Source of the DNA: an uncultured Phycisphaeraceae bacterium
GTDB lineage: Bacteria; Planctomycetota; Phycisphaerae; Phycisphaerales; Phycisphaeraceae
NCBI GenBank assembly: GCA_964625505.1
Contig: CAZVBW010000001.1
Coordinates: forward strand, 8,542-72,541
DNA: 64,000 nt
Direction of reading: 5' to 3'
In this document: piece by piece, positions 22,507-63,988 of the stretch
How positions within the stretch are numbered: position 1 is the first letter of the stretch
Layout: each line of letters starts with the position of its first letter
Translations under genes and position numbers: made by a program
Notes under the pieces: generated by a model
What the model saw: only the letters and a program-made list of their open reading frames with translations
Database searches by the model: none
What the model was told of the DNA's origin: nothing

Positions 22507-23244
22507 CTATACCAACACCGCCGACCGCTCCGCCGCCTCCGTCGGCCGGGCCGCCAGACCCGCTGCCCAGACCACCCGCGCCACCACCAGCGTCTGCCTG
22601 GCCCCCCAGTCGCTCGCGAACACCTCCAGCCCCAGCCGCACCCGCTGACCCAGCCGGACCAGCTCCACCCGCGGCGGCTCACCGGCCAGCTCATGGTCCG
22701 GGCCGTCCAGCAGCTCCAGCATGCTCACCAGCGGGGGCGTGATCACCGCCACGTCCGGCCGATCGTCCATCGCCTCCACCGCCGTCCGCCCGATCCCCGC
22801 CAGCGGCGCCTCCGCGCCGCACCGCAGTTCCCGCCACTGGTCCGTCGGCACCTGCAGTGTCAGGTGGCCCAAGGCCTGCCCCGGCTGGGCCTCGGCCCGC
22901 CCCGCCACATCGCTACGCACCGGCGCAACGCTCCCGACCGCGTGCCCGTCGATGATCAGCCAGTCGTCGCCCGGCCGGTCCTCCCGCGACTGCTCGGGCG
23001 GCCCGAGGTCCACCACGTCCAGCCACACCCGCCGGCCCGCCCGCCGACGACGCAGCACCCGCACCAGCCGCCGGCCCCCCAACGCCTTGGCATCCACCGC
23101 CACCTCCCGCCGCAGCGACGCCACGTCCTGCAGCAGGTCCGCCGCCAGCGACAGCCGCACCAGGCCCGGCTCGGAGCGGTCCCGTTCCAACCCCCGCACC
23201 GGGCCACGCACCTGCCGATCCACGTACAACCAGCCGTCCATCAT
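22507..23244 (-). CDS. Hypothetical protein
   Basis: The ORF composition is plausible (MMDGWLYVDRQVRGPV...) and is the least Arg/Pro-biased of the overlapping frames. I recognise no family. Confidence 0.4.
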   Translation of the reverse strand: MMDGWLYVDRQVRGPVRGLERDRSEPGLVRLSLAADLLQDVASLRREVAVDAKALGGRRLVRVLRRRRAGRRVWLDVVDLGPPEQSREDRPGDDWLIIDGHAVGSVAPVRSDVAGRAEAQPGQALGHLTLQVPTDQWRELRCGAEAPLAGIGRTAVEAMDDRPDVAVITPPLVSMLELLDGPDHELAGEPPRVELVRLGQRVRLGLEVFASDWGARQTLVVARVVWAAGLAARPTEAAERSAVLV

Positions 23245-23443
23245 CCCTCGGCCCTCTCCCACAATGGCGAACACAGACCGCGCCGATCAATCCTACTGCT
23301 GCGGCTGCCGGCATAAACCCCGCCCGCGCTTGCCCAGAATCACAATCCGGCGGCGGGCGAAGATTTTCTGGCACCGATGACGCGGCGCGGGTAAACTGGG
23401 AGGTTCGTTCCGCTGGATGGCTGGCGGGGCATCTTTGACAACT

Positions 23444-23834
23444 GGGGCCGACTGGCATCGACCGGACGCGTTCCGGTTCGTGGTTGCACGTCGAGGTCCA
23501 GGGACCTCGTTAATCCTCCTGGAAAACACTAAATGCCGACGATTCCATCGCCGGTCGGATCGGCTTCGCGCCGGCCCGCCTCGCTGCCTAACTTCGGTTA
23601 GCGCAGCCTCTGCCTCCCCGTCCAATCTTCCTGCGTTGGGCGGGGCAGGCACACTGACCAGCAGGATCGCCCGCGTCGGGCTGTCTCCGACGACGCGGGT
23701 TAAGAGCACCGGAGACTGGACCCGAGGCAGGGCGTCGCTGCTCGTCCGAGGGTCGAGATCAAATCAGCGAATACACGTGTAGACGCTACGGGCTGCCCGT
23801 CACGGCACGGGGGTTCGAATCCCCCCGGCTCCAC
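23444..23834 (+). ncRNA. ssrA: tmRNA (transfer-messenger RNA)
   Basis: The 5' GGGGCCG pairs with the 3' CGGCUCC, including the G3:U pair. The 3' end GGGGGUUCGAAUCCCCCCGGCUCCA is a tRNA-like T-arm and acceptor stem. The tag ORF at 23535-23591 encodes ADDSIAGRIGFAPARLAA followed by a stop, which is a canonical ...LAA ending. CCA is only partly encoded. Confidence 0.93.
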
Positions 23835-44309: not shown

Positions 44310-45542
44310 ATGGATGTGGTGCTTCAACTACTTGCCGCGTTGTGGGCGGTGGTGCTGGAGGCGGCGCCGTGGTTGTTGTTCGGGCTGATCATCGCGGGGC
44401 TGCTGAAGGGGTTGATGCCGCAGGCTTGGCTGGCGCGGTGGCTCGGCGGCCGGGGGGTCGGGCCGGTGGTGCGGGCGGCGGTGATTGGGGTGCCGTTACC
44501 GCTGTGTTCGTGCTCGGTGGTCCCCGCGGCGGTGGCGCTTCGGCGGACCGGGGCGAGTAAGGGGGCCACGGTGTCGTTCCTGGTCAGCACGCCGGAGAAC
44601 GGCGCGGATTCGTTGGCGTTGACGTACGCGCTGCTGGGCCCGGTGATGACGGTGGCCCGGCCGGTGGCGGCGGTGATCAGCGCGGTGGGGGCGGGGCTGG
44701 CGACGATGTGGTGGGACCGGGATGACAGCGAGCCGGGGTCTGTGACCCCGGATTCGGGATGCTGCGGAGGCGCAGCGCCGGTCGCGTCGTGCTGCGACAG
44801 CGAGCCGGTGTCTGTGACACCGGATTCGGGGTGCTGCGGCGGCGCGGACATACCAGACGCTTCTCCGCCTGCGGCGGATCAGGGTCGGCTTCCGGGGGTT
44901 CCGGGGGTTCCGGGGGCTCGGGGGCTGGCGAGGCGGTCGGTCGATGGGGTGCGGTATGCGTTGACGACGTTGCTGGACGAGATCGGGCTGTGGCTGGTGA
45001 TCGGGTTGGTGCTGGCGGCGGGGGTGGCGGTGCTGGCGCCGCCGGACGTGATCGCGCGGTGGGGCAGCGGGCCGCTGGCGATGGTGCTGATGCTGGTGGT
45101 GGGGGTGCCGATGTACATCTGTGCGACGGCGTCGACGCCGGTGGCCGCGGCGCTGCTGCTGGCGGGGGTGAGCCCGGGGACGGTGCTGGTGTTCTTGCTC
45201 GCCGGGCCTGCGACGAACCTGGGCACGGTCGGCATCGTCCGCCGGGAGCTCGGCTGGCGGGCGACGGGGTCGTACCTGGGCGCAGTGGCGATCGGCTCGA
45301 TCGGGGCGGGGCTGCTGCTGGACTGGATGATCACGGCCTGGCAGTTGCCGGTCATGGCCCACGTCGGCGAACACGGCGAGATGCTCCCGGCGTGGCTGGC
45401 GATCGGCTCGGCCGCCCTGCTGCTGACCCTCGGAGCGTGGCGCGTCGCCGTCCGGCTGGGCCAACGCTTCACCCGCGCAGACACCGACGCCCCCCAGCCC
45501 TGCTGCAGCACCGACGAATCCCCCGCGCCCGCCTCCGCCTGA
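44310..45542 (+). CDS. Permease of the DUF318/ArsP-like family (putative metal transporter) with a Cys-rich central loop
   Basis: The sequence includes LEAAPWLLFGLIIAGLLKG...VIGVPLPLCSCSVVPAAVALRRTGASKGATVSFLVSTPE. The central loop contains two SEPG/VSVTPDSGCCGG units encoded by repeat elements. Confidence 0.75.
   Translation: MDVVLQLLAALWAVVLEAAPWLLFGLIIAGLLKGLMPQAWLARWLGGRGVGPVVRAAVIGVPLPLCSCSVVPAAVALRRTGASKGATVSFLVSTPENGADSLALTYALLGPVMTVARPVAAVISAVGAGLATMWWDRDDSEPGSVTPDSGCCGGAAPVASCCDSEPVSVTPDSGCCGGADIPDASPPAADQGRLPGVPGVPGARGLARRSVDGVRYALTTLLDEIGLWLVIGLVLAAGVAVLAPPDVIARWGSGPLAMVLMLVVGVPMYICATASTPVAAALLLAGVSPGTVLVFLLAGPATNLGTVGIVRRELGWRATGSYLGAVAIGSIGAGLLLDWMITAWQLPVMAHVGEHGEMLPAWLAIGSAALLLTLGAWRVAVRLGQRFTRADTDAPQPCCSTDESPAPASA
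44727..44893. repeat. Two family-A elements (44727-44758, 44799-44830) and one family-B element (44850-44893) inside the permease loop
   Basis: Family A is AGCGAGCCGG(G/T)GTCTGTGAC(C/A)CCGGATTCGGG. Family B is ATACCAGACGCTTCTCCGCCTGCGGCGGATCAGGGTCGGCTTCC. Other copies are at 52686, 55260, 60433 and 62803. Confidence 0.8.
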
Positions 45543-58204: not shown

Positions 58205-60250
58205 ATGGACCCGGCGATCTGGCGCGCGAACCTGGCGGCACTGCGACGGCGGCACCCGCTGGCGGCCGATGCCGTCGAGGCGGCAGAGCCCGCGTGCCTG
58301 CAGTGGGCCCAGGGGCGGGACGGGGCGGCGGTGGCGAGCATCGACCACGACGGCCGGCCGCTCGCGATGTGCAGCAAGTACGCCCCGCTCGACGAAGCCA
58401 GGGCCCTGATCGACCCGGTGGACCTGGACAAGGCGGCGTGCGTCGCCGTGCTGGGTTGCGGGGTGGGGCACCACGTCGCGGCGCTGGCCGATCGACTGAG
58501 CCGAAAGGCGGTGCTGGTGGTCTACGAGCCGGACGCCGGGCTGCTGCGGGCCGTGCTGGAGCGGGTGGACCACAGCGGCTGGCTGGGGGCGGACCACGTG
58601 GTGCTCATGGTCGGCGAAGAGGTCGACCGCGGGCAGCTGATCCGGCTGATCGAGCCGCGGGCGATGGTCGTGACCCAAGGCACACAGCTGGTCTCGCACC
58701 CGCCGACGCGTCGTCGGCATGCGGCCCAGCTCAAGGCCTTCGCCGACGAGCTGACCGCGGGCATCGACTACTGCCGGATGTCGATCGCGACGGTGCTGGT
58801 CAACGGCGTGCGGACCTGCCACAACCTCGCGATGAACCTGCCGCACTACACGGCCGGCGAGACGGTCAACGACCTCTACCAGGCCGCCGCCGGTCGGCCG
58901 GCCGTGCTTGTCGGGGCCGGGCCGTCGCTGGTGAAGAACGTCGACCTGCTGACCGACCCGGCGGTGCGGAACAACGTGGTGCTCATCACGGTGCAGACGT
59001 GCCTCAAGCCGCTGCTGGACCGCGGCATCCGCCCGGACTTCGTGACCGCGCTGGACTACTCAGCGATCTGCACGCGGTTTTACGAAGGGCTGCCGGACCT
59101 GCCCGACGTGACGCTCGTCGCCGAGCCCAAGGCCAACCCCGCCATCCTCGACGCGTTCCCCGGGCCGATCCGCATCTGCCGCAGCGAGTTCAACGACCAT
59201 GTGCTGGGCAACCCCGCCGACGGCGGGCTGAGCCGGCCGATGCGGCACGTCCCCGCCGGGGCGACCGTGGCCCACCTGTCCTTCTACGTGGCCCAGCTGC
59301 TGGGCTGCGACCCGATCATCATGATCGGCCAGGACCTGGGCTTTTCCGACGGCCTGTACTACGCCCCGGGCACGCCGGTGCACCAGGTCTGGTCCAGCGA
59401 GCTGGGCGCCTTCAACACCATCGAGATGATGGAGTGGACCCGCATCGTGCGGATGCGTGGCCACCTGTCCCGGCACGAGGACGTCCACGGCCGGCCGATC
59501 TTCAGCGACCAGCAGATGATCGCGTACCTGCGGCAGTTCGAGCGCGATTTCGCCGCCGCCCCGCAGACCGTTATCGACGCCACCCAGGGCGGGATGCCCA
59601 AGCTGCACACCACGCGGATGACCCTCGCCGAGGCGCTCGCCGAGCACGCGACCCAGCCCGTGCCGCCACTTCCGCAGGCCCAGCGAAACGTGGACGCCGA
59701 CCGACTGACGCGGCTGGGCCCGCTGCTGGATCGGCGGGTGGAGCAGGTGCAGCAGCTGGGCCGGACTACCCGGGCCTCGGTCCGCCTGCTCGAGCAGATG
59801 CAGGTCGCTCACGGCAAGGCAGACCAGTCCCGGCTCGCTTCGTTGTTCGCCAAGCTCAAGAAGCACCAGGCCCGGGTACACGGCGAACTGGGCGACGCCT
59901 TTGCCATCGTCAGCCTGATCAACAGCACCGGCGGGTTCGAACGCAATCGGCAGGACCGCCTGATCGACACCCACAGCGCCGACGGCCGCGACCGTGAAGC
60001 CCGGCAGATGCAGCGCGACCTGGCCAACCTCAAGTCGCTGCTGAGCGGTGTGGACGAGGCGGTCCGGATCCTCCGCGATGCGCGGGGGCGGGTGGCTGAT
60101 GTCTCGGCCTCCCCTCCCTCTCAGGGAGGGGCCGGGGGAGGGTCGAGCCGTCCCGCCGCCGATACGCCCGCGGCCCGTCCGCTGCGACCCTCACCCCAGC
60201 CCTCTCCCTGCAAGGGAGAGGGGGCCAAGCCGCTGAAGGAGGCCGCGTGA
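58205..60250 (+). CDS. DUF115 / motility-accessory-factor (Maf)-like putative nonulosonic-acid glycosyltransferase
   Basis: The central block is PAVLVGAGPSLVKNVDLL...VLITVQTCLKPLLDRGIRPDFVTALDY...GATVAHLSFYVAQLLGCDPIIMIGQDLGF. It matches the MptE-like/DUF115 core of Maf proteins (from memory). The C-terminal tail is repeat-derived. Confidence 0.65.
   Translation: MDPAIWRANLAALRRRHPLAADAVEAAEPACLQWAQGRDGAAVASIDHDGRPLAMCSKYAPLDEARALIDPVDLDKAACVAVLGCGVGHHVAALADRLSRKAVLVVYEPDAGLLRAVLERVDHSGWLGADHVVLMVGEEVDRGQLIRLIEPRAMVVTQGTQLVSHPPTRRRHAAQLKAFADELTAGIDYCRMSIATVLVNGVRTCHNLAMNLPHYTAGETVNDLYQAAAGRPAVLVGAGPSLVKNVDLLTDPAVRNNVVLITVQTCLKPLLDRGIRPDFVTALDYSAICTRFYEGLPDLPDVTLVAEPKANPAILDAFPGPIRICRSEFNDHVLGNPADGGLSRPMRHVPAGATVAHLSFYVAQLLGCDPIIMIGQDLGFSDGLYYAPGTPVHQVWSSELGAFNTIEMMEWTRIVRMRGHLSRHEDVHGRPIFSDQQMIAYLRQFERDFAAAPQTVIDATQGGMPKLHTTRMTLAEALAEHATQPVPPLPQAQRNVDADRLTRLGPLLDRRVEQVQQLGRTTRASVRLLEQMQVAHGKADQSRLASLFAKLKKHQARVHGELGDAFAIVSLINSTGGFERNRQDRLIDTHSADGRDREARQMQRDLANLKSLLSGVDEAVRILRDARGRVADVSASPPSQGGAGGGSSRPAADTPAARPLRPSPQPSPCKGEGAKPLKEAA
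60107..60225. repeat. Two family-C hairpin elements (opposite orientations) forming the 3' end of the Maf-like gene
   Basis: The first is CCCCTCCC-tctca-GGGAGGGG followed by CCGGGGGAGGGT (60111-60143). The second is ACCCTCACCCCAG followed by CCCTCTCCC-tgcaa-GGGAGAGGG (60187-60222). Confidence 0.8.
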
Positions 60251-61977
60251 CCCGCCGACGCATCGTGGCCCTGGTGGACGCCGACCCGCACCGCGGGCGG
60301 CTGGGGCACGCGCGGTCGCTCGGGGCGCGGCTGGGCCACACGACCGTGCTGGGCCAGACGCTGCATCGCATCGGGGCGGTCCCGGCGGTGACGGATGTGG
60401 TCGTGGTGCACCCGGCGGACGCGGCGCTGGAGATACCAGACGCTTCGCCGACTTCGTCGACTCAGCGTCGGCTTCCTATTGCCACTCATGCCGCATCCGT
60501 GCCGCACGACGACGGGGCCCGCCGACGCATCGTCGCTGCGCGTCAATGGGCCCACACCGCGTGGCGTGGCGGGCTGGGTCAGGCGACCGCTTGGGATGAA
60601 CTGTTGCCGGCCGACCCGTTCGCCGATGCGTTGGCGGCTAATGCTTCGGATGCCGATGTCGTACTGCTGCTGGGCGGCGACTGGTGCCTGGTCGATCCGG
60701 ACCTGACCGCATCGCTGATCGAGCGGTTTGAGCAGTCGCCCGAGGCGTTCAAGCTGGTCTTCGCGCAGGCCCCGCCGGGGCTGTCGCCGGTGCTGTTGCA
60801 GCCGGGGGTGCTGCGGGACCTGGCCGAGCACCGCGCGACGCTGGGCCGGGTGCTGGGCTACAACCCGAGCCAGCCGAGCCTGGACCCGATCGGCAAGGAC
60901 GTGTGTGTTGCGGTGCCGGCCCACGTCCGCGACCTGGGACGACGTCTGATCCACGACACGCCCCGGGCCATCGCACACCTCCGCGCCATCGCCGAGCACC
61001 TGGGCCCCGCCCTGCCGACCGCCGACGCCGACGCGATCGCCGACGCCTCCCGCGCTGTCGAGCTGACCTCCGACGCCTGGCGGACCCGCCGACTGCCCCC
61101 ACAGTGGTTCATCGAACTCACCCCGCACCGTGACGCCGCCGGGCCGATCACCCCGCAGCACCACGTGCAACCCGACCGCGGGCCGCTGGACGTGGCGCTG
61201 GCCCGCGACCTGTTCGCCGAGCTGGCCGAGGTCGGCGACGTGGCCGTGATGCTCGGCGGCATCGGCGAGCCGCTGCGGCACCCGCGCTGGACCGACATCG
61301 TCACCGCCGCCGCCGACGCCGGCATTGCCGCCATCGGGCTGACCACCGACCTGCTGGCCGACCGCGAGACCATCGCCCCGCTGATGGACCTGCCGCTGGA
61401 CGTGCTGCAGGTCCGCCTGAACGCCGACCGGCCCGACACCTACGCCCAGGTGATGGGTGTCGACCCGGCGAAGTGGGACCACGTGATGGGCCAGCTGCAG
61501 TGGCTGATCGACCAGCGGCTCAAGCGTGACGGTTCGCTGCGGGCTGGGCTGCCGTGGCTGGTGCCGACGCTGGTCAAGACAGCCGGCACGCTGCGGGACA
61601 TGGAGTCGTTTTTCGAGCGTTGGCTGCGCCTGGGCGAACACCCCGTGATCGAGCGTTTCGACACGGGCCTGGGCCGCGTGAACGATCTGTCGCCGGTCCC
61701 GATGGACCCGCCGCCGCGGGCCGCAAATCCGCATGCGGTACCGACCTGTGCCTATGTCCTGGCCGATGGCAGTGTTACCCTGTGCCTTGGAGACTGGCTG
61801 GGCGAGCGATCGCTGGGCCAGGCGGAGCAAGCCGGCGATCTGCTGAAGCATTGGCAGTCGCTGGCTCGTCCCGAGACGCGTCGGCGGCAGCGGGCCCTGG
61901 GGCTCACCGCCGGCTGCGAAGACTGGCTGCGGGGATGGGACACGCGGGCGGCCACCGCCCCACCGCGTGCGGCATGA
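60247..61977 (+). CDS. Fusion protein: SpsF/cytidylyltransferase-like N-terminal domain plus a radical-SAM/SPASM-like C-terminal domain lacking the CxxxCxxC motif
   Basis: The GTG start overlaps the Maf-like stop (GTGA). The N-terminus reads RRIVALVDADP...VVLLLGGDWCLVDPDL. The C-terminus reads WFIELTPHRDAAGPITPQ where a CX3CX2C would sit, followed by GGIGEPLRHPRW, GLTTDLL, LQVRLNADRPDTYAQVMG and ...CAYVLADGSVTLC. Confidence 0.55.
   Translation: MTRRRIVALVDADPHRGRLGHARSLGARLGHTTVLGQTLHRIGAVPAVTDVVVVHPADAALEIPDASPTSSTQRRLPIATHAASVPHDDGARRRIVAARQWAHTAWRGGLGQATAWDELLPADPFADALAANASDADVVLLLGGDWCLVDPDLTASLIERFEQSPEAFKLVFAQAPPGLSPVLLQPGVLRDLAEHRATLGRVLGYNPSQPSLDPIGKDVCVAVPAHVRDLGRRLIHDTPRAIAHLRAIAEHLGPALPTADADAIADASRAVELTSDAWRTRRLPPQWFIELTPHRDAAGPITPQHHVQPDRGPLDVALARDLFAELAEVGDVAVMLGGIGEPLRHPRWTDIVTAAADAGIAAIGLTTDLLADRETIAPLMDLPLDVLQVRLNADRPDTYAQVMGVDPAKWDHVMGQLQWLIDQRLKRDGSLRAGLPWLVPTLVKTAGTLRDMESFFERWLRLGEHPVIERFDTGLGRVNDLSPVPMDPPPRAANPHAVPTCAYVLADGSVTLCLGDWLGERSLGQAEQAGDLLKHWQSLARPETRRRQRALGLTAGCEDWLRGWDTRAATAPPRAA
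60433..60476. repeat. Family-B element inside the SpsF-like domain coding region
   Basis: ATACCAGACGCTTCGCCGACTTCGTCGACTCAGCGTCGGCTTCC encodes IPDASPTSSTQRRLP in frame. Confidence 0.75.
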
Positions 61978-61999
61978 GCACCAGCAGGAGGAACTGACG

Positions 62000-62755
62000 A
62001 TGAGCATCAAAACCCTGGGCGTCGTTCTCGCCCGAGCCGGCAGCAAGGGCCTGCCTGAAAAGAACTCCCGCCCCGTCGCCGGCAAGCCCATGCTCAGCTG
62101 GACGATCGAGCACGCCCTGGCCAGCCCGGCGCTGGACCGCGTGGTCTTGTCGACCGACGGCCAGGAACTGGCTCAGATCGGCCGCAAGCACAAGATCGAG
62201 GTGGTCCACCGCCCCTACGAACTGGCTCACGACACCGCCCCGGTCGACGCCGCCGCCCGCCACGCGGTGACTTCCATCATCGGGATGCACGAGCAGGTCG
62301 TGATCCTCTACGCCAATGTCCCGGTCCGCCCGGCCGACTTGGTCCAGCGGGCCGTCGACAAGCTCCAAGCCACCGGCTGCGACTCGGTCCAGTCCGTGTG
62401 CCCGGTCGGCAAGCACCACCCCTACTGGATGCAGCAGGTCCTGCCCGAACCGGGCGTCCGCGACCCCTCCGCCCACGCCGCCGGCCACGGCAGGCTCGAG
62501 CCGTTCCACGCCAATCAGGTCGACCGCCGGCAAGACCTGCCGCCGCTGTACGTCCTGGACGGCGGGATCATCGCCGTCCGCCGCGACAGCCTCTTTCACG
62601 TGGTCGAGGGCCAGCCGCACGCCTTCCTCGGCGACGACCGCCGGGCCATCATCACCCAGCCCGGCGAGGTCATCGACGTGGACAGCCCGCTGGAACTGCA
62701 CGTCGCCGAGGCCGTCCTCAACGAACAGCAAAACGCCGCCCGCGGCATCGCCTGA
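62000..62755 (+). CDS. Acylneuraminate (CMP-nonulosonic acid) cytidylyltransferase family protein
   Basis: An AGGAGG RBS precedes the start. The sequence is MSIKTLGVVLARAGSKGLPEKNSRPVAGKPMLSWTIEHAL...VLSTDG.... Confidence 0.8.
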   Translation: MSIKTLGVVLARAGSKGLPEKNSRPVAGKPMLSWTIEHALASPALDRVVLSTDGQELAQIGRKHKIEVVHRPYELAHDTAPVDAAARHAVTSIIGMHEQVVILYANVPVRPADLVQRAVDKLQATGCDSVQSVCPVGKHHPYWMQQVLPEPGVRDPSAHAAGHGRLEPFHANQVDRRQDLPPLYVLDGGIIAVRRDSLFHVVEGQPHAFLGDDRRAIITQPGEVIDVDSPLELHVAEAVLNEQQNAARGIA

Positions 62756-62766
62756 CGCCCCCCAAA

Positions 62767-62847
62767 GCCCACCCCTTCAGGGGTGGGCGGGTACCTGATG
62801 CCCCGAAGACGACGCCGATCCGCCTCAGGCGGAGAAGCGTCTGGTAT
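62767..62847. repeat. Family-D-like hairpin (62767-62788) plus a family-B element (62803-62847, reverse) filling the intergenic gap
   Basis: The hairpin is GCCCACCCC-ttca-GGGGTGGGC. The reverse complement of 62803-62847 is ATACCAGACGCTTCTCCGCCTGAGGCGGATCGGCGTCGTCTTCGG. Confidence 0.8.
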
Positions 62848-62857
62848 CCCTGTCCTC

Positions 62858-63988
62858 ATGCCCATCCCCCGCCGCATCGCCGTCGTCACCGGCACCCGCG
62901 CCGAGGCCGGCCTGCTGCGGCCGGTAATGCACGCCATCGCCGACCACCCGGACCTGCAGCTGCAGCTGGTCGTCGCCGGGATGCACCTGGTCCACTACAC
63001 GCACCGCGACCTGCCCTTCACCCCCGCCGCCGATGTCCCCATGCAGCACCCGGGCCACACCGGCCGGCTCGCCGACGCCCGGGCCCTGGGCCGCGGCATC
63101 GCCGGCTTCGCTGACGCCTTCGACACGCTGGACCCCGACGCGGTGCTCGTCCTGGGTGATCGCATCGAGGCCTTCGCCGCTGCCAGTGCCGCCAGCATCG
63201 CGGGCCACCTGCTGGTTCACATGCACGGCGGAGACCGCGCCCAGGGCGTCGCCGACGAGGCCATGCGCCACGCCATCACCAAGCTCGCCCACCTGCACCT
63301 ACCCGCGACCGCCCAGAGCCGACGCCGCATCCTCCGCATGGGCGAACCGGCCGACCGCGTCCACCGCGTCGGCTCACCCGCGGTCGACGGCCTGGGCGAG
63401 GTCCGCCCCGCCGACGACGCCCCCGCCTGCATCGTGATGCAACACCCCGTCGGCGACCCGCCCGACCTCGAACGCCAACGGATGCATGCCATCCTCAAAG
63501 CCACCGACCGCTTCACCCATACCGCATCCGCTTCTGCTGCCGGGGGCGGGGGCGGGGTCTGGGGCGGGGGTCGCCTGGTCATGGCCCCCAACGCCGACCC
63601 CGGCCGCGAAGGCATCACCCAAGCCATCACCGACCACGGCATCACCCCCGTCAACCACCTGCCCCGCGACCGTTGGCTCGCCACACTCAGGGCCGCCCGC
63701 GTCCTGGTCGGCAACAGCTCCGCCGGCCTCATCGAAGCGGCCGTGCTCAAAACCGCCACCGTCAACATCGGCCGCCGCCAGGCCGGCCGCGAAACCCCCG
63801 CCAACGTCATCAACCTCGCCAGCACTGCCACCCACGACATCACCGCCGCCCTCGACCACGCCCTCACCCTCAACCTCACCCGCCTCCGCCACCCCTACGG
63901 CCGCGGCGACACCGGCCCCCAAACCGCCCACCTCCTCGCCACCCTCAACCTCCAATCCCTCCCCCGCACCAAGCAAAACAGCTACTAG
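62858..63988 (+). CDS. UDP-N-acetylglucosamine 2-epimerase (hydrolysing, NeuC/LegG-like)
   Basis: RIAVVTGTRAEAGLLRPV, VLGDRIEAFAAA, HMHGGDRAQGVADEAMRHAITKLAHLH, VGNSSAGLIEA and NIGRRQAGR follow the NeuC pattern (from memory). There is a Gly-rich insert. Confidence 0.75.
   Translation: MPIPRRIAVVTGTRAEAGLLRPVMHAIADHPDLQLQLVVAGMHLVHYTHRDLPFTPAADVPMQHPGHTGRLADARALGRGIAGFADAFDTLDPDAVLVLGDRIEAFAAASAASIAGHLLVHMHGGDRAQGVADEAMRHAITKLAHLHLPATAQSRRRILRMGEPADRVHRVGSPAVDGLGEVRPADDAPACIVMQHPVGDPPDLERQRMHAILKATDRFTHTASASAAGGGGGVWGGGRLVMAPNADPGREGITQAITDHGITPVNHLPRDRWLATLRAARVLVGNSSAGLIEAAVLKTATVNIGRRQAGRETPANVINLASTATHDITAALDHALTLNLTRLRHPYGRGDTGPQTAHLLATLNLQSLPRTKQNSY

Follow-up and report, generated by a model that had tools for sequence, protein, structure and literature searches.

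A radical-SAM-like protein without cluster-binding cysteines as a candidate accessory subunit of a Maf-type flagellin glycosyltransferase in Phycisphaerae

Here we report the analysis of a 576-codon gene, herein gene X, located at positions 60247-61977 of the forward strand in a 64,000-nucleotide stretch of DNA (the window) from an uncultured Phycisphaeraceae bacterium (GenBank assembly GCA_964625505.1, contig CAZVBW010000001.1). As judged from the open reading frame (ORF), its homologs, an AlphaFold2 (AF2) model and Foldseek searches, its product combines a cytidylyltransferase-like domain, a radical S-adenosylmethionine (SAM)-type barrel without a cluster site, and a degenerate Twitch tail. 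We propose, with a probability of about 0.65, that X is a pseudo-radical-SAM protein that serves as a non-radical accessory subunit of the Maf-type flagellin nonulosonic-acid glycosyltransferase encoded immediately upstream, because X is adjacent to Maf, translationally coupled to it, often fused to it, and co-occurs with it. An earlier reading of the letters alone, hereafter the sequence-only reading, had described the same ORF, which is present as it was given, as a radical-SAM/SPASM-like domain without the cysteine triad fused to an SpsF-like domain, and had considered it a pseudo-enzyme, a scaffold or a protein of different chemistry. The fold of X and the family-wide loss of the cysteines lend support to that view.

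Maf-type enzymes transfer nonulosonic (sialic-acid-like) acids, activated by cytidine monophosphate (CMP), onto flagellin. To our knowledge, none of the studied Mafs, from Campylobacter, Aeromonas, Magnetospirillum, Shewanella and Geobacillus, has been reported with a partner such as X. The sufficiency of Maf was first shown in 2023, together with the finding that some Mafs require a factor encoded in cis. Flagellin binding by Maf-2 of Shewanella needs the small protein GlfM encoded just downstream, Maf-1 carries a fused TPR domain, and the interconversion of split and fused Maf factors (tripartite versus bipartite) has been discussed (bioRxiv 10.1101/2023.12.03.569772). Like such accessory factors, X is encoded in cis directly downstream of Maf and occurs in both split and fused variants.

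Association of X with Maf and flagellin

The Maf gene upstream of X (58205-60250, forward strand) encodes a protein of 681 amino acids (aa) of the MptE-like/DUF115 type, which scores 116.7 bits against PF01973, shows a weak match to Maf_flag10_N, and matches the Maf structure of Magnetospirillum magneticum (PDB 5mu5). At the junction of the two genes (60238-60250), a GGAGG Shine-Dalgarno box at 60238-60242 precedes the GTG start codon of X, which overlaps the TGA stop codon of Maf in the sequence GTGA (60247-60250). The translational coupling that the sequence-only reading had noted is thus visible in the DNA.

This arrangement recurs in related genomes. We examined 80 loci taken from genomes of representative species. 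In 78 of them, X is immediately preceded by a co-oriented Maf homolog, and no Maf was seen in the remaining two because their contigs end before that point; NeuA follows X in 68 of these loci, and NeuC is found downstream in 60. Maf::X fusions of 1100-1270 aa account for about 46 of the top 150 representative relatives; their first ~650 residues correspond to Maf (PF01973 plus Maf_flag10_N) and the rest to X. Such forms, with X as the C-terminal half of a Maf polypeptide, make up 48 of 240 aligned relatives (approximately a fifth), and one fused operon reads [Maf::X]-NeuA-NeuB-NeuC. In an even sample of 151 Phycisphaerae genomes, all 74 Maf-positive genomes carry X, a count made with no phylogenetic correction, and X without Maf was limited to two weak partial matches. 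The pairwise distances of X and Maf across 57 loci are correlated at r 0.92, with a partial r of 0.68 after controlling for NeuA and NeuC; the corresponding partial r of NeuA or NeuC with X is 0.16-0.23.

A natural Maf::X fusion of 1197 aa was modelled by AF2 with a mean predicted local distance difference test (pLDDT) score of 92.5 and a predicted template modelling (pTM) score of 0.91, the only uncertain region being the linker at residues ~640-660. The first half of the fusion matches Maf 5mu5 (E 2e-17). Because the whole-chain pTM is so high, we infer that the two halves pack against each other in a defined way.

X is also linked to flagellin. In the sample of 151 Phycisphaerae, flagellin is present in 74 of the 76 genomes with an X match versus 41 of the 75 without (Fisher 1e-10), and among the best matches listed the median length of the flagellin open frame is 513 aa in X carriers versus 292 aa in non-carriers. 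Two length classes can be seen among these best matches, ~480-630 aa with Maf and X versus ~275-450 aa without them; the long flagellins that accompany Maf and X presumably carry surface-exposed domains. A gene context with flagellin was seen for P0251, a distant relative of X that retains the cysteine triad of radical-SAM enzymes. Its locus reads flagellin-FlaG-FliD-FliS-DUF8042-Maf-X-NeuA-NeuB-NeuC-methyltransferase-acetyltransferase-dehydratase-aminotransferase, with Maf and X overlapping by four bases, and is a classical flagellin glycosylation island.

Fold of X and erosion of its iron-sulfur sites

The AF2 model of X, built with a multiple sequence alignment (MSA) of 39 homologs, has a pLDDT of 91.6 and a pTM of 0.91. 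Foldseek comparison of its C-terminal half with the PDB retrieved the radical-SAM proteins SuiB, DesII, SkfB, BtrN (TM-score TMt 0.67), BlsE and MoaA at E 6e-9 to 1e-5, as well as CteB, and the N-terminal half matched the cytidylyltransferases Leptospira 6oew (TMt 0.67), IspD, KdsB and 2waw. X has the partial (beta/alpha)6 TIM-barrel fold of a radical-SAM core, as well as a nucleotidyltransferase (GT-A-like) fold in its N-domain. The fusion of a radical-SAM-like and an SpsF-like part put forward by the sequence-only reading is therefore borne out at the level of fold by the predicted structure and its Foldseek matches, and each of the landmark peptides quoted there was located in the protein: IELTPHRDAAGPITPQ at aa 289-304, GGIGEPLRHP at aa 337-346, GLTTDLL at aa 364-370, LQVRLNADRPDTYAQVMG at aa 387-404, and CAYVLADGSVTLC at aa 501-513.

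By sequence, X is recognized weakly. The Pfam Radical_SAM profile PF04055 gives 22.3 bits against a cut-off of 29.5 over aa 308-426; the match spans profile positions 22-142 and therefore starts after the Cys loop. NTP_transf_3 gives 21 bits against a cut-off of 27 bits, over profile positions 80-146 only, and the Pfam scan found no match to PF13186 (SPASM) in X. A single-sequence search of the PDB returned no match, BtrN being reached only with the X family profile (E 1.7e-6). The closest curated family is the spiro-SPASM TIGRFAM, as the sequence-only reading had anticipated: NCBIfam TIGR04321 matches X at 54.4 bits (E 8e-15; 53.1 bits in the genome scan; cut-off 250 bits), and the alignment covers both halves of the protein, aa 125-539 versus profile positions 78-483 of 510. 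The architecture of this family, a nucleotidyltransferase-like N-domain followed by a radical-SAM core and a Cys-rich tail, is found in X, with the domains confirmed by Foldseek.

Three modules were delineated on the forward strand. The N-terminal domain with a cytidylyltransferase/GT-A-like fold comprises aa 1-235 (60247-60951) and is defined by Foldseek, by invariant columns and by hhalign comparison with the NeuA of the operon. The radical-SAM-type partial barrel without a cluster site comprises aa 285-480 (61099-61686), according to the sub-threshold PF04055 match, Foldseek and column conservation. The Twitch-like tail comprises aa 481-565 (61687-61941), according to alignment with the BtrN Twitch (E 1.7e-6) and the Cys counts of family columns. 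The residues that the family conserves most strictly belong to the N-domain (R41, R99, W106-R107-G108-G109, D117-E118, D150, FxQAPPGL at 172-179, Y205, D213, R233 and D237) and are common to the triad-bearing relatives too. The SpsF-like assignment of the sequence-only reading holds for the fold, but not for the canonical CTP-binding P-loop: the motif ARxGSKGxPxKN, which the operon's own NeuA carries, is absent from the N-domain, where hhalign with the NeuA family of the operon aligns xxDxxxxRLGxxxxL instead. Only the first ~60 columns of this globally weak alignment (probability 17%) are trustworthy. Since the P-loop is replaced, the N-domain represents a cytidylyltransferase fold without its defining motif.

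The radical-SAM cluster site of X is gone. The protein has five cysteines only, at residues 147, 220, 501, 513 and 557. In the profile alignment with BtrN, the ligands C16, C20 and C23 of its CX3CX2C motif fall on R295 (61129-61131), G299 (61141-61143) and T302 (61150-61152) of X, followed by the conserved P303, within the former cluster loop IELTPHRDAAGPITPQ at 61111-61158 (forward strand). In the 39-sequence alignment of the X family, these columns hold Arg in 37, Gly in 36, Thr in 27 and Pro in 38 sequences, none of the 39 members has a Cys in the loop, and the replacement motif ELTPRRxxxGPITPQH is itself conserved. The lack of the triad, as the sequence-only reading had it, is thus established for X and extends to its orthologs: among 240 well-covered aligned relatives, 238 lack the triad and mostly show R-G-T in these columns, and only the distant relatives P0251 (CKMQCSFC) and P0184 (CPLHCVWC) keep it. 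A frameshift or mis-called frame hiding a CX3CX2C motif was rejected, as no triad was found in the six frames of 60000-62100 and colinearity with the homologs extends over 97% of the length.

When P0251 was used to query 301 Planctomycetota genomes, we found two further triad-bearing orthologs (G217 and G337), both of which also have the order Maf-X-NeuA. The motifs ETNG and SxSxDA occur in all four triad-bearing relatives. In the comparison with 15 triad-less lineages, X included, column 368 never holds Asn and column 390 never holds Ser in these lineages; X has Asp368 and Arg390 in these SAM-ribose positions and keeps the GxGE(P) motif at aa 338-342. The SAM-ribose contacts thus appear to have been lost together with the cluster, which argues against hidden radical chemistry. 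The TIGR04321 scores of relatives form a graded series of 209 and 199 bits (triad-bearing), 171, 118, 54 (X) and 30 bits (a fused form). Within the phylum, a few relatives still possess both CX3CX2C and the SAM-ribose residues, and their genes are found in an identical Maf-X-NeuA arrangement; the X family is therefore best interpreted as a branch of dead enzymes within the uncharacterised spiro-SPASM lineage. In a more distant triad-less relative (L096, on a contig of GCA_964574885.1), the gene order is Maf-X-(139 aa)-NeuA-B12-binding radical SAM-NeuB, so that a separate and apparently intact radical-SAM enzyme is encoded beside the triad-less protein.

The auxiliary cluster site in the tail of X is partly eroded as well. 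The consensus of the X family tail has four Cys in the pattern C...GX4C...CX2C, which is the one-cluster Twitch type, and not the seven-Cys motif of SPASM with its two auxiliary clusters. The tail CX2C of BtrN and its preceding Cys align on family columns 513, 554 and 557, and the fourth family Cys is in column 494; we take these columns to correspond to the auxiliary-cluster ligands of BtrN. In the 39-sequence alignment, columns 494, 513, 554 and 557 hold Cys in 24, 37, 36 and 37 sequences, and X has N494, C513, T554 and C557, i.e., two of four, plus the lineage-unique C501. The SPASM-like tail of the sequence-only reading should accordingly be described as a Cys-type tail of the BtrN Twitch kind with half of its Cys left, rather than a full SPASM domain. 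The four-Cys site is complete in 123 of 192 split relatives, and all four Cys are missing from 45 of the 48 relatives fused to Maf. In the phylogenetic tree, X belongs to a clade of 49 with 100% support, 42 members of which lack the first Cys and six lack all four, X alone keeping two; genomes from the same GTDB family have four, three, or one to zero auxiliary Cys. Given that the triad is gone family-wide and the auxiliary Cys are lost in fused forms and partly in X, both Fe-S sites appear to be dispensable for the function of the family, with X of the window as an intermediate. With half of even its auxiliary [4Fe-4S] site gone, X probably functions free of Fe-S clusters, or binds at most a labile one of structural type.

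The loss of both sites contrasts with the persistence of the protein itself, for which passive carriage as a decaying relic, a functional pseudogene in the operon, would be another explanation. The progressive loss of both cluster sites fits such decay, as do a selfish repeat inserted in frame in X (see below) and a divergence that is the highest in the operon, the mean pairwise p-distance of X being 0.56 versus 0.45 for Maf, 0.41 for NeuA and 0.44 for NeuC (loci L004-L083). We consider decay highly improbable nonetheless. A word-indexed search retrieved 118 homologs that are full-length and 30-50% identical to X; every one comes from Phycisphaerae or Planctomycetota, and most carry the annotation 'SPASM domain-containing protein'. 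An exhaustive HMMER search gave 994 relatives at E<1e-3; ORFs are intact and full-length in hundreds of lineages. Conservation extends to the motifs that took the place of the lost site, AF2 predicts the structure with very high confidence, every Maf-positive genome in the sample has X (74/74), and the repeated fusions to Maf keep the reading frame. The mean frequency of the top residue is 0.52 in barrel columns versus 0.49 in the N-domain, alike in split and fused forms, and E290, R295, R311, G338, G340, D/E341, H345, T367, D385, A393, Y399, P440, E453, F455 and W459 of the barrel are kept at >=85% in both. Since the barrel columns are as conserved as the N-domain and this set of residues is kept in both forms, X appears to be under purifying selection and not decaying.

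Proposed role of X and alternative explanations

In the scenario that we propose, the ancestor of X would have been a true radical-SAM/Twitch enzyme with a nucleotidyltransferase-like N-domain that acted beside Maf in the nonulosonic-acid pathway, because triad-bearing orthologs are encoded at the equivalent place in the operon. On the way to Phycisphaerae, the radical step would have been dropped while X persisted, co-evolving with Maf and becoming fused to it repeatedly. The simplest explanation would be that Maf needs X physically, with X holding or presenting one of the two substrates, the flagellin acceptor or the CMP-sugar donor. A role with the donor is suggested by the nucleotide-binding type of the N-domain and by the resemblance of the barrel to nucleotide-sugar radical-SAM enzymes; the nearest structural neighbours of X include the nucleotide- and nucleoside-sugar enzymes DesII, BlsE, BtrN and viperin. 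A broader proposal, which we advance tentatively and with more doubt than confidence, is that this clade of Maf depends on a third, undescribed kind of specificity module besides GlfM and the fused TPR domain: a former nucleotide-sugar radical-SAM enzyme made iron-free stepwise, first at the SAM cluster and then at the auxiliary one, docked or fused to Maf and selecting its donor or acceptor. X of the window would be an intermediate caught in this process.

Several observations weigh against an accessory-subunit role. Correlations of distances are biased towards long proteins; no other products of the operon are as long as Maf and X, so their distances are the least noisy. The 93-row MSA behind the model of the fusion consists of 6 paired, 42 Maf-only and 45 X-only rows, and a physical Maf-X interaction is inferred from genomics together with this one AF2 model. 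In the wider superfamily, Maf is found within 1.5 kb in only 12 of 20 loci. The statistics on co-occurrence and on flagellin ignore phylogeny. A 97%-complete genome from the same order (G107) has a Maf::X-like fusion and no detectable flagellin, and may be either a case outside the association with flagellin or an indication that some other protein is the acceptor; the fusion is a 944-aa open frame (C1:576732-579137) with a weak match to Maf (E 1.5e-11) and a match to X (E 5e-101). The structural neighbours are mixed, comprising the peptide-modifying enzymes SuiB, CteB and SkfB along with DesII, BlsE, BtrN and viperin, and they are compatible with a donor-binding, an acceptor-binding or an allosteric role alike. 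Conservation in the X family also covers many polar residues of the barrel and the motif GxGE/D...H, the counterpart of the SAM-binding 'GGE', and a small-molecule or non-radical catalytic site in the barrel could still be present; the N-domain invariants WRGG, DE and QAPPGL could likewise mark a real enzymatic activity. Finally, our literature search turned up no publication that deals with the X family, TIGR04321, or a radical-SAM-like protein as partner of Maf.

In an unlikely alternative, X is still an enzyme of a non-radical kind. Its N-domain or remodelled barrel would act on the nonulosonic-acid donor, through alternative nucleotide activation or through modification or editing of the CMP-activated acid, and the link to Maf would reflect metabolic channelling rather than a structural role. 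The most conserved residues of X are indeed polar and charged ones of the N-domain, common to the triad-bearing relatives; the fold of that domain is a nucleotidyltransferase fold; and the barrel retains GxG(D/E)xxxH, T367, D385, Y399 and E453. This alternative is weakened by the replacement of the canonical CTP P-loop by xxDxxxxRLG and by the presence of a dedicated NeuA-type synthetase next to X; X is also the fastest-evolving gene of the operon (p-distance 0.56), as would suit an adaptor better than a core enzyme.

Far less probable is a cryptic radical-SAM enzyme that binds the SAM-cleaving cluster non-canonically, with other ligands, with the Twitch cysteines, or in a site shared with Maf or another partner. 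Non-canonical sites of the radical-SAM type exist in ThiC and Dph2 and count in favour of this idea, and most split members of the X family keep the four Twitch Cys. Cysteines are scarce, however, in the C-terminal half of X itself, which has three (501, 513 and 557), and 45 of the 48 fused relatives have neither auxiliary Cys nor triad; the position of the first triad Cys is held by a conserved Arg, and the SAM-ribose residues N368 and S390 were lost along with the triad.

The accessory-subunit reading may be compared with several known systems. GlfM (Unay, Kint & Viollier, bioRxiv 10.1101/2023.12.03.569772) resembles X in its location directly downstream of a Maf without its own acceptor-binding extension and in the logic of split and fused forms. 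GlfM is a small four-helix bundle and X a 576-aa protein with three modules of alpha/beta and TIM-barrel type; the two are not homologous, so their likeness is positional and logical only, and a GlfM-like function of X would be an analogy. The TIGR04321 spiro-SPASM family shares the architecture of X, is its best curated match and is connected to it by the graded series of relatives, but X at 54 bits is far below the 250-bit cut-off and lacks CX3CX2C and the SAM-ribose residues. The Twitch sugar radical-SAM enzymes BtrN, DesII, BlsE and AbmM share with X a barrel and a one-cluster C-terminal module; unlike them, X has no cluster site, two of four Twitch Cys, an extra N-terminal cytidylyltransferase-like domain, and no pointer to redox chemistry. 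The haloarchaeal pseudo-SAM/SPASM protein TIGR04347 provides a curated precedent for a pseudo-enzyme and matches X weakly (16.7 bits), but its cut-off is 525 bits, its taxon is different, and it has no N-terminal nucleotidyltransferase-like domain and no known association with Maf. Maf glycosyltransferases such as that of M. magneticum (5mu5) are the proposed partner of X, which itself has no Maf/MptE-like domain. In the radical-SAM pseudoenzyme literature we found no direct precedent, and a 2026 paper on Treponema flagella mentions neither Maf, SPASM nor radical SAM.

The public labels 'SPASM domain-containing protein' and 'radical SAM protein' overstate the chemistry of the X family. The family further suggests that Maf always acts together with a partner in Phycisphaerae and in some of the other Planctomycetota, and it provides a concrete partner to include in Maf reconstitutions. 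At one orthologous operon position, the relatives form a natural series from triad plus Twitch cluster, through triad lost and Twitch kept, to both lost and fused, which is suited to asking what a radical-SAM barrel is good for without its chemistry, and which could show what reaction the relatives that are still active carry out on nonulosonic acids or flagellin.

Remaining operon genes and palindromic repeats

Downstream of X, the CMP-nonulosonate synthetase-like gene (NeuA/PseF-like; 62000-62755, forward strand) scores 68 bits against PF02348 and 88 bits against TIGR03584. Its ORF as listed starts at GTG 61967, with an 11-nt overlap with X; ATG 62000 (MSIKTLGVV...), located 23 nt past the X stop, is the likelier start, because it is preceded by GGAGGAG and the homologs begin there. 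The last gene of the operon (62783-63988, forward strand) encodes a hydrolysing UDP-N-acetylglucosamine 2-epimerase of the NeuC type (TIGR03568, 274 bits, above the cut-off). The next credible ORF beyond NeuC, one with high GC content at third codon positions, is on the opposite strand, and the operon is therefore Maf-X-NeuA-NeuC. Flagellin genes and NeuB are encoded elsewhere in the source genome.

Repeated elements occur within these coding regions. A perfect palindrome of another repeat family than that described below, ccctctccct-gcaa-gggagaggg (~60200-60222), spans the final codons of the Maf ORF (window positions 60180-60250); as these codons run through the palindrome, inserted elements seem to make up the 3' end of Maf. 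Within X, positions 60432-60475 (forward strand) hold an in-frame 44-nt copy of a dispersed palindromic repeat, 'family B', which encodes aa 62-77 (EIPDASPTSSTQRRLP) and was recognized by its inverted copy and by BLAST. The element consists of conserved arms, GATACCAGACGCTTC and TCAGCGTCGGCTTCC, flanking a variable GC hairpin; it has 56 BLAST matches genome-wide, and the 15-mer arm occurs three times in the window versus 0.07 expected. The inverted copy is located at 62805-62848, just inside the listed NeuC ORF, and the third copy of the 15-nt arm, with one mismatch, at 44849-44863, distant from the glycosylation operon.

The stretch of X encoded by the repeat is a variable surface loop, 4-5 aa longer than in relatives, where pLDDT dips (residues 61-80). 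The sequence-only reading was right about the element itself, but a clean insertion is not supported: as the loop is merely 4-5 aa longer, the element replaced part of a variable loop. The repeat has no evident bearing on the function of X. A further family-B copy, 92% identical over 48 nt, was found on another contig of the same genome (C26:23526-23573), inside a 416-aa NeuB open frame. Since this copy sits between two NeuB pieces of one open frame, matched by Pfam at 23008-23502 and 23575-23778, the nonulosonate synthase gene also seems to carry an in-frame family-B insertion.

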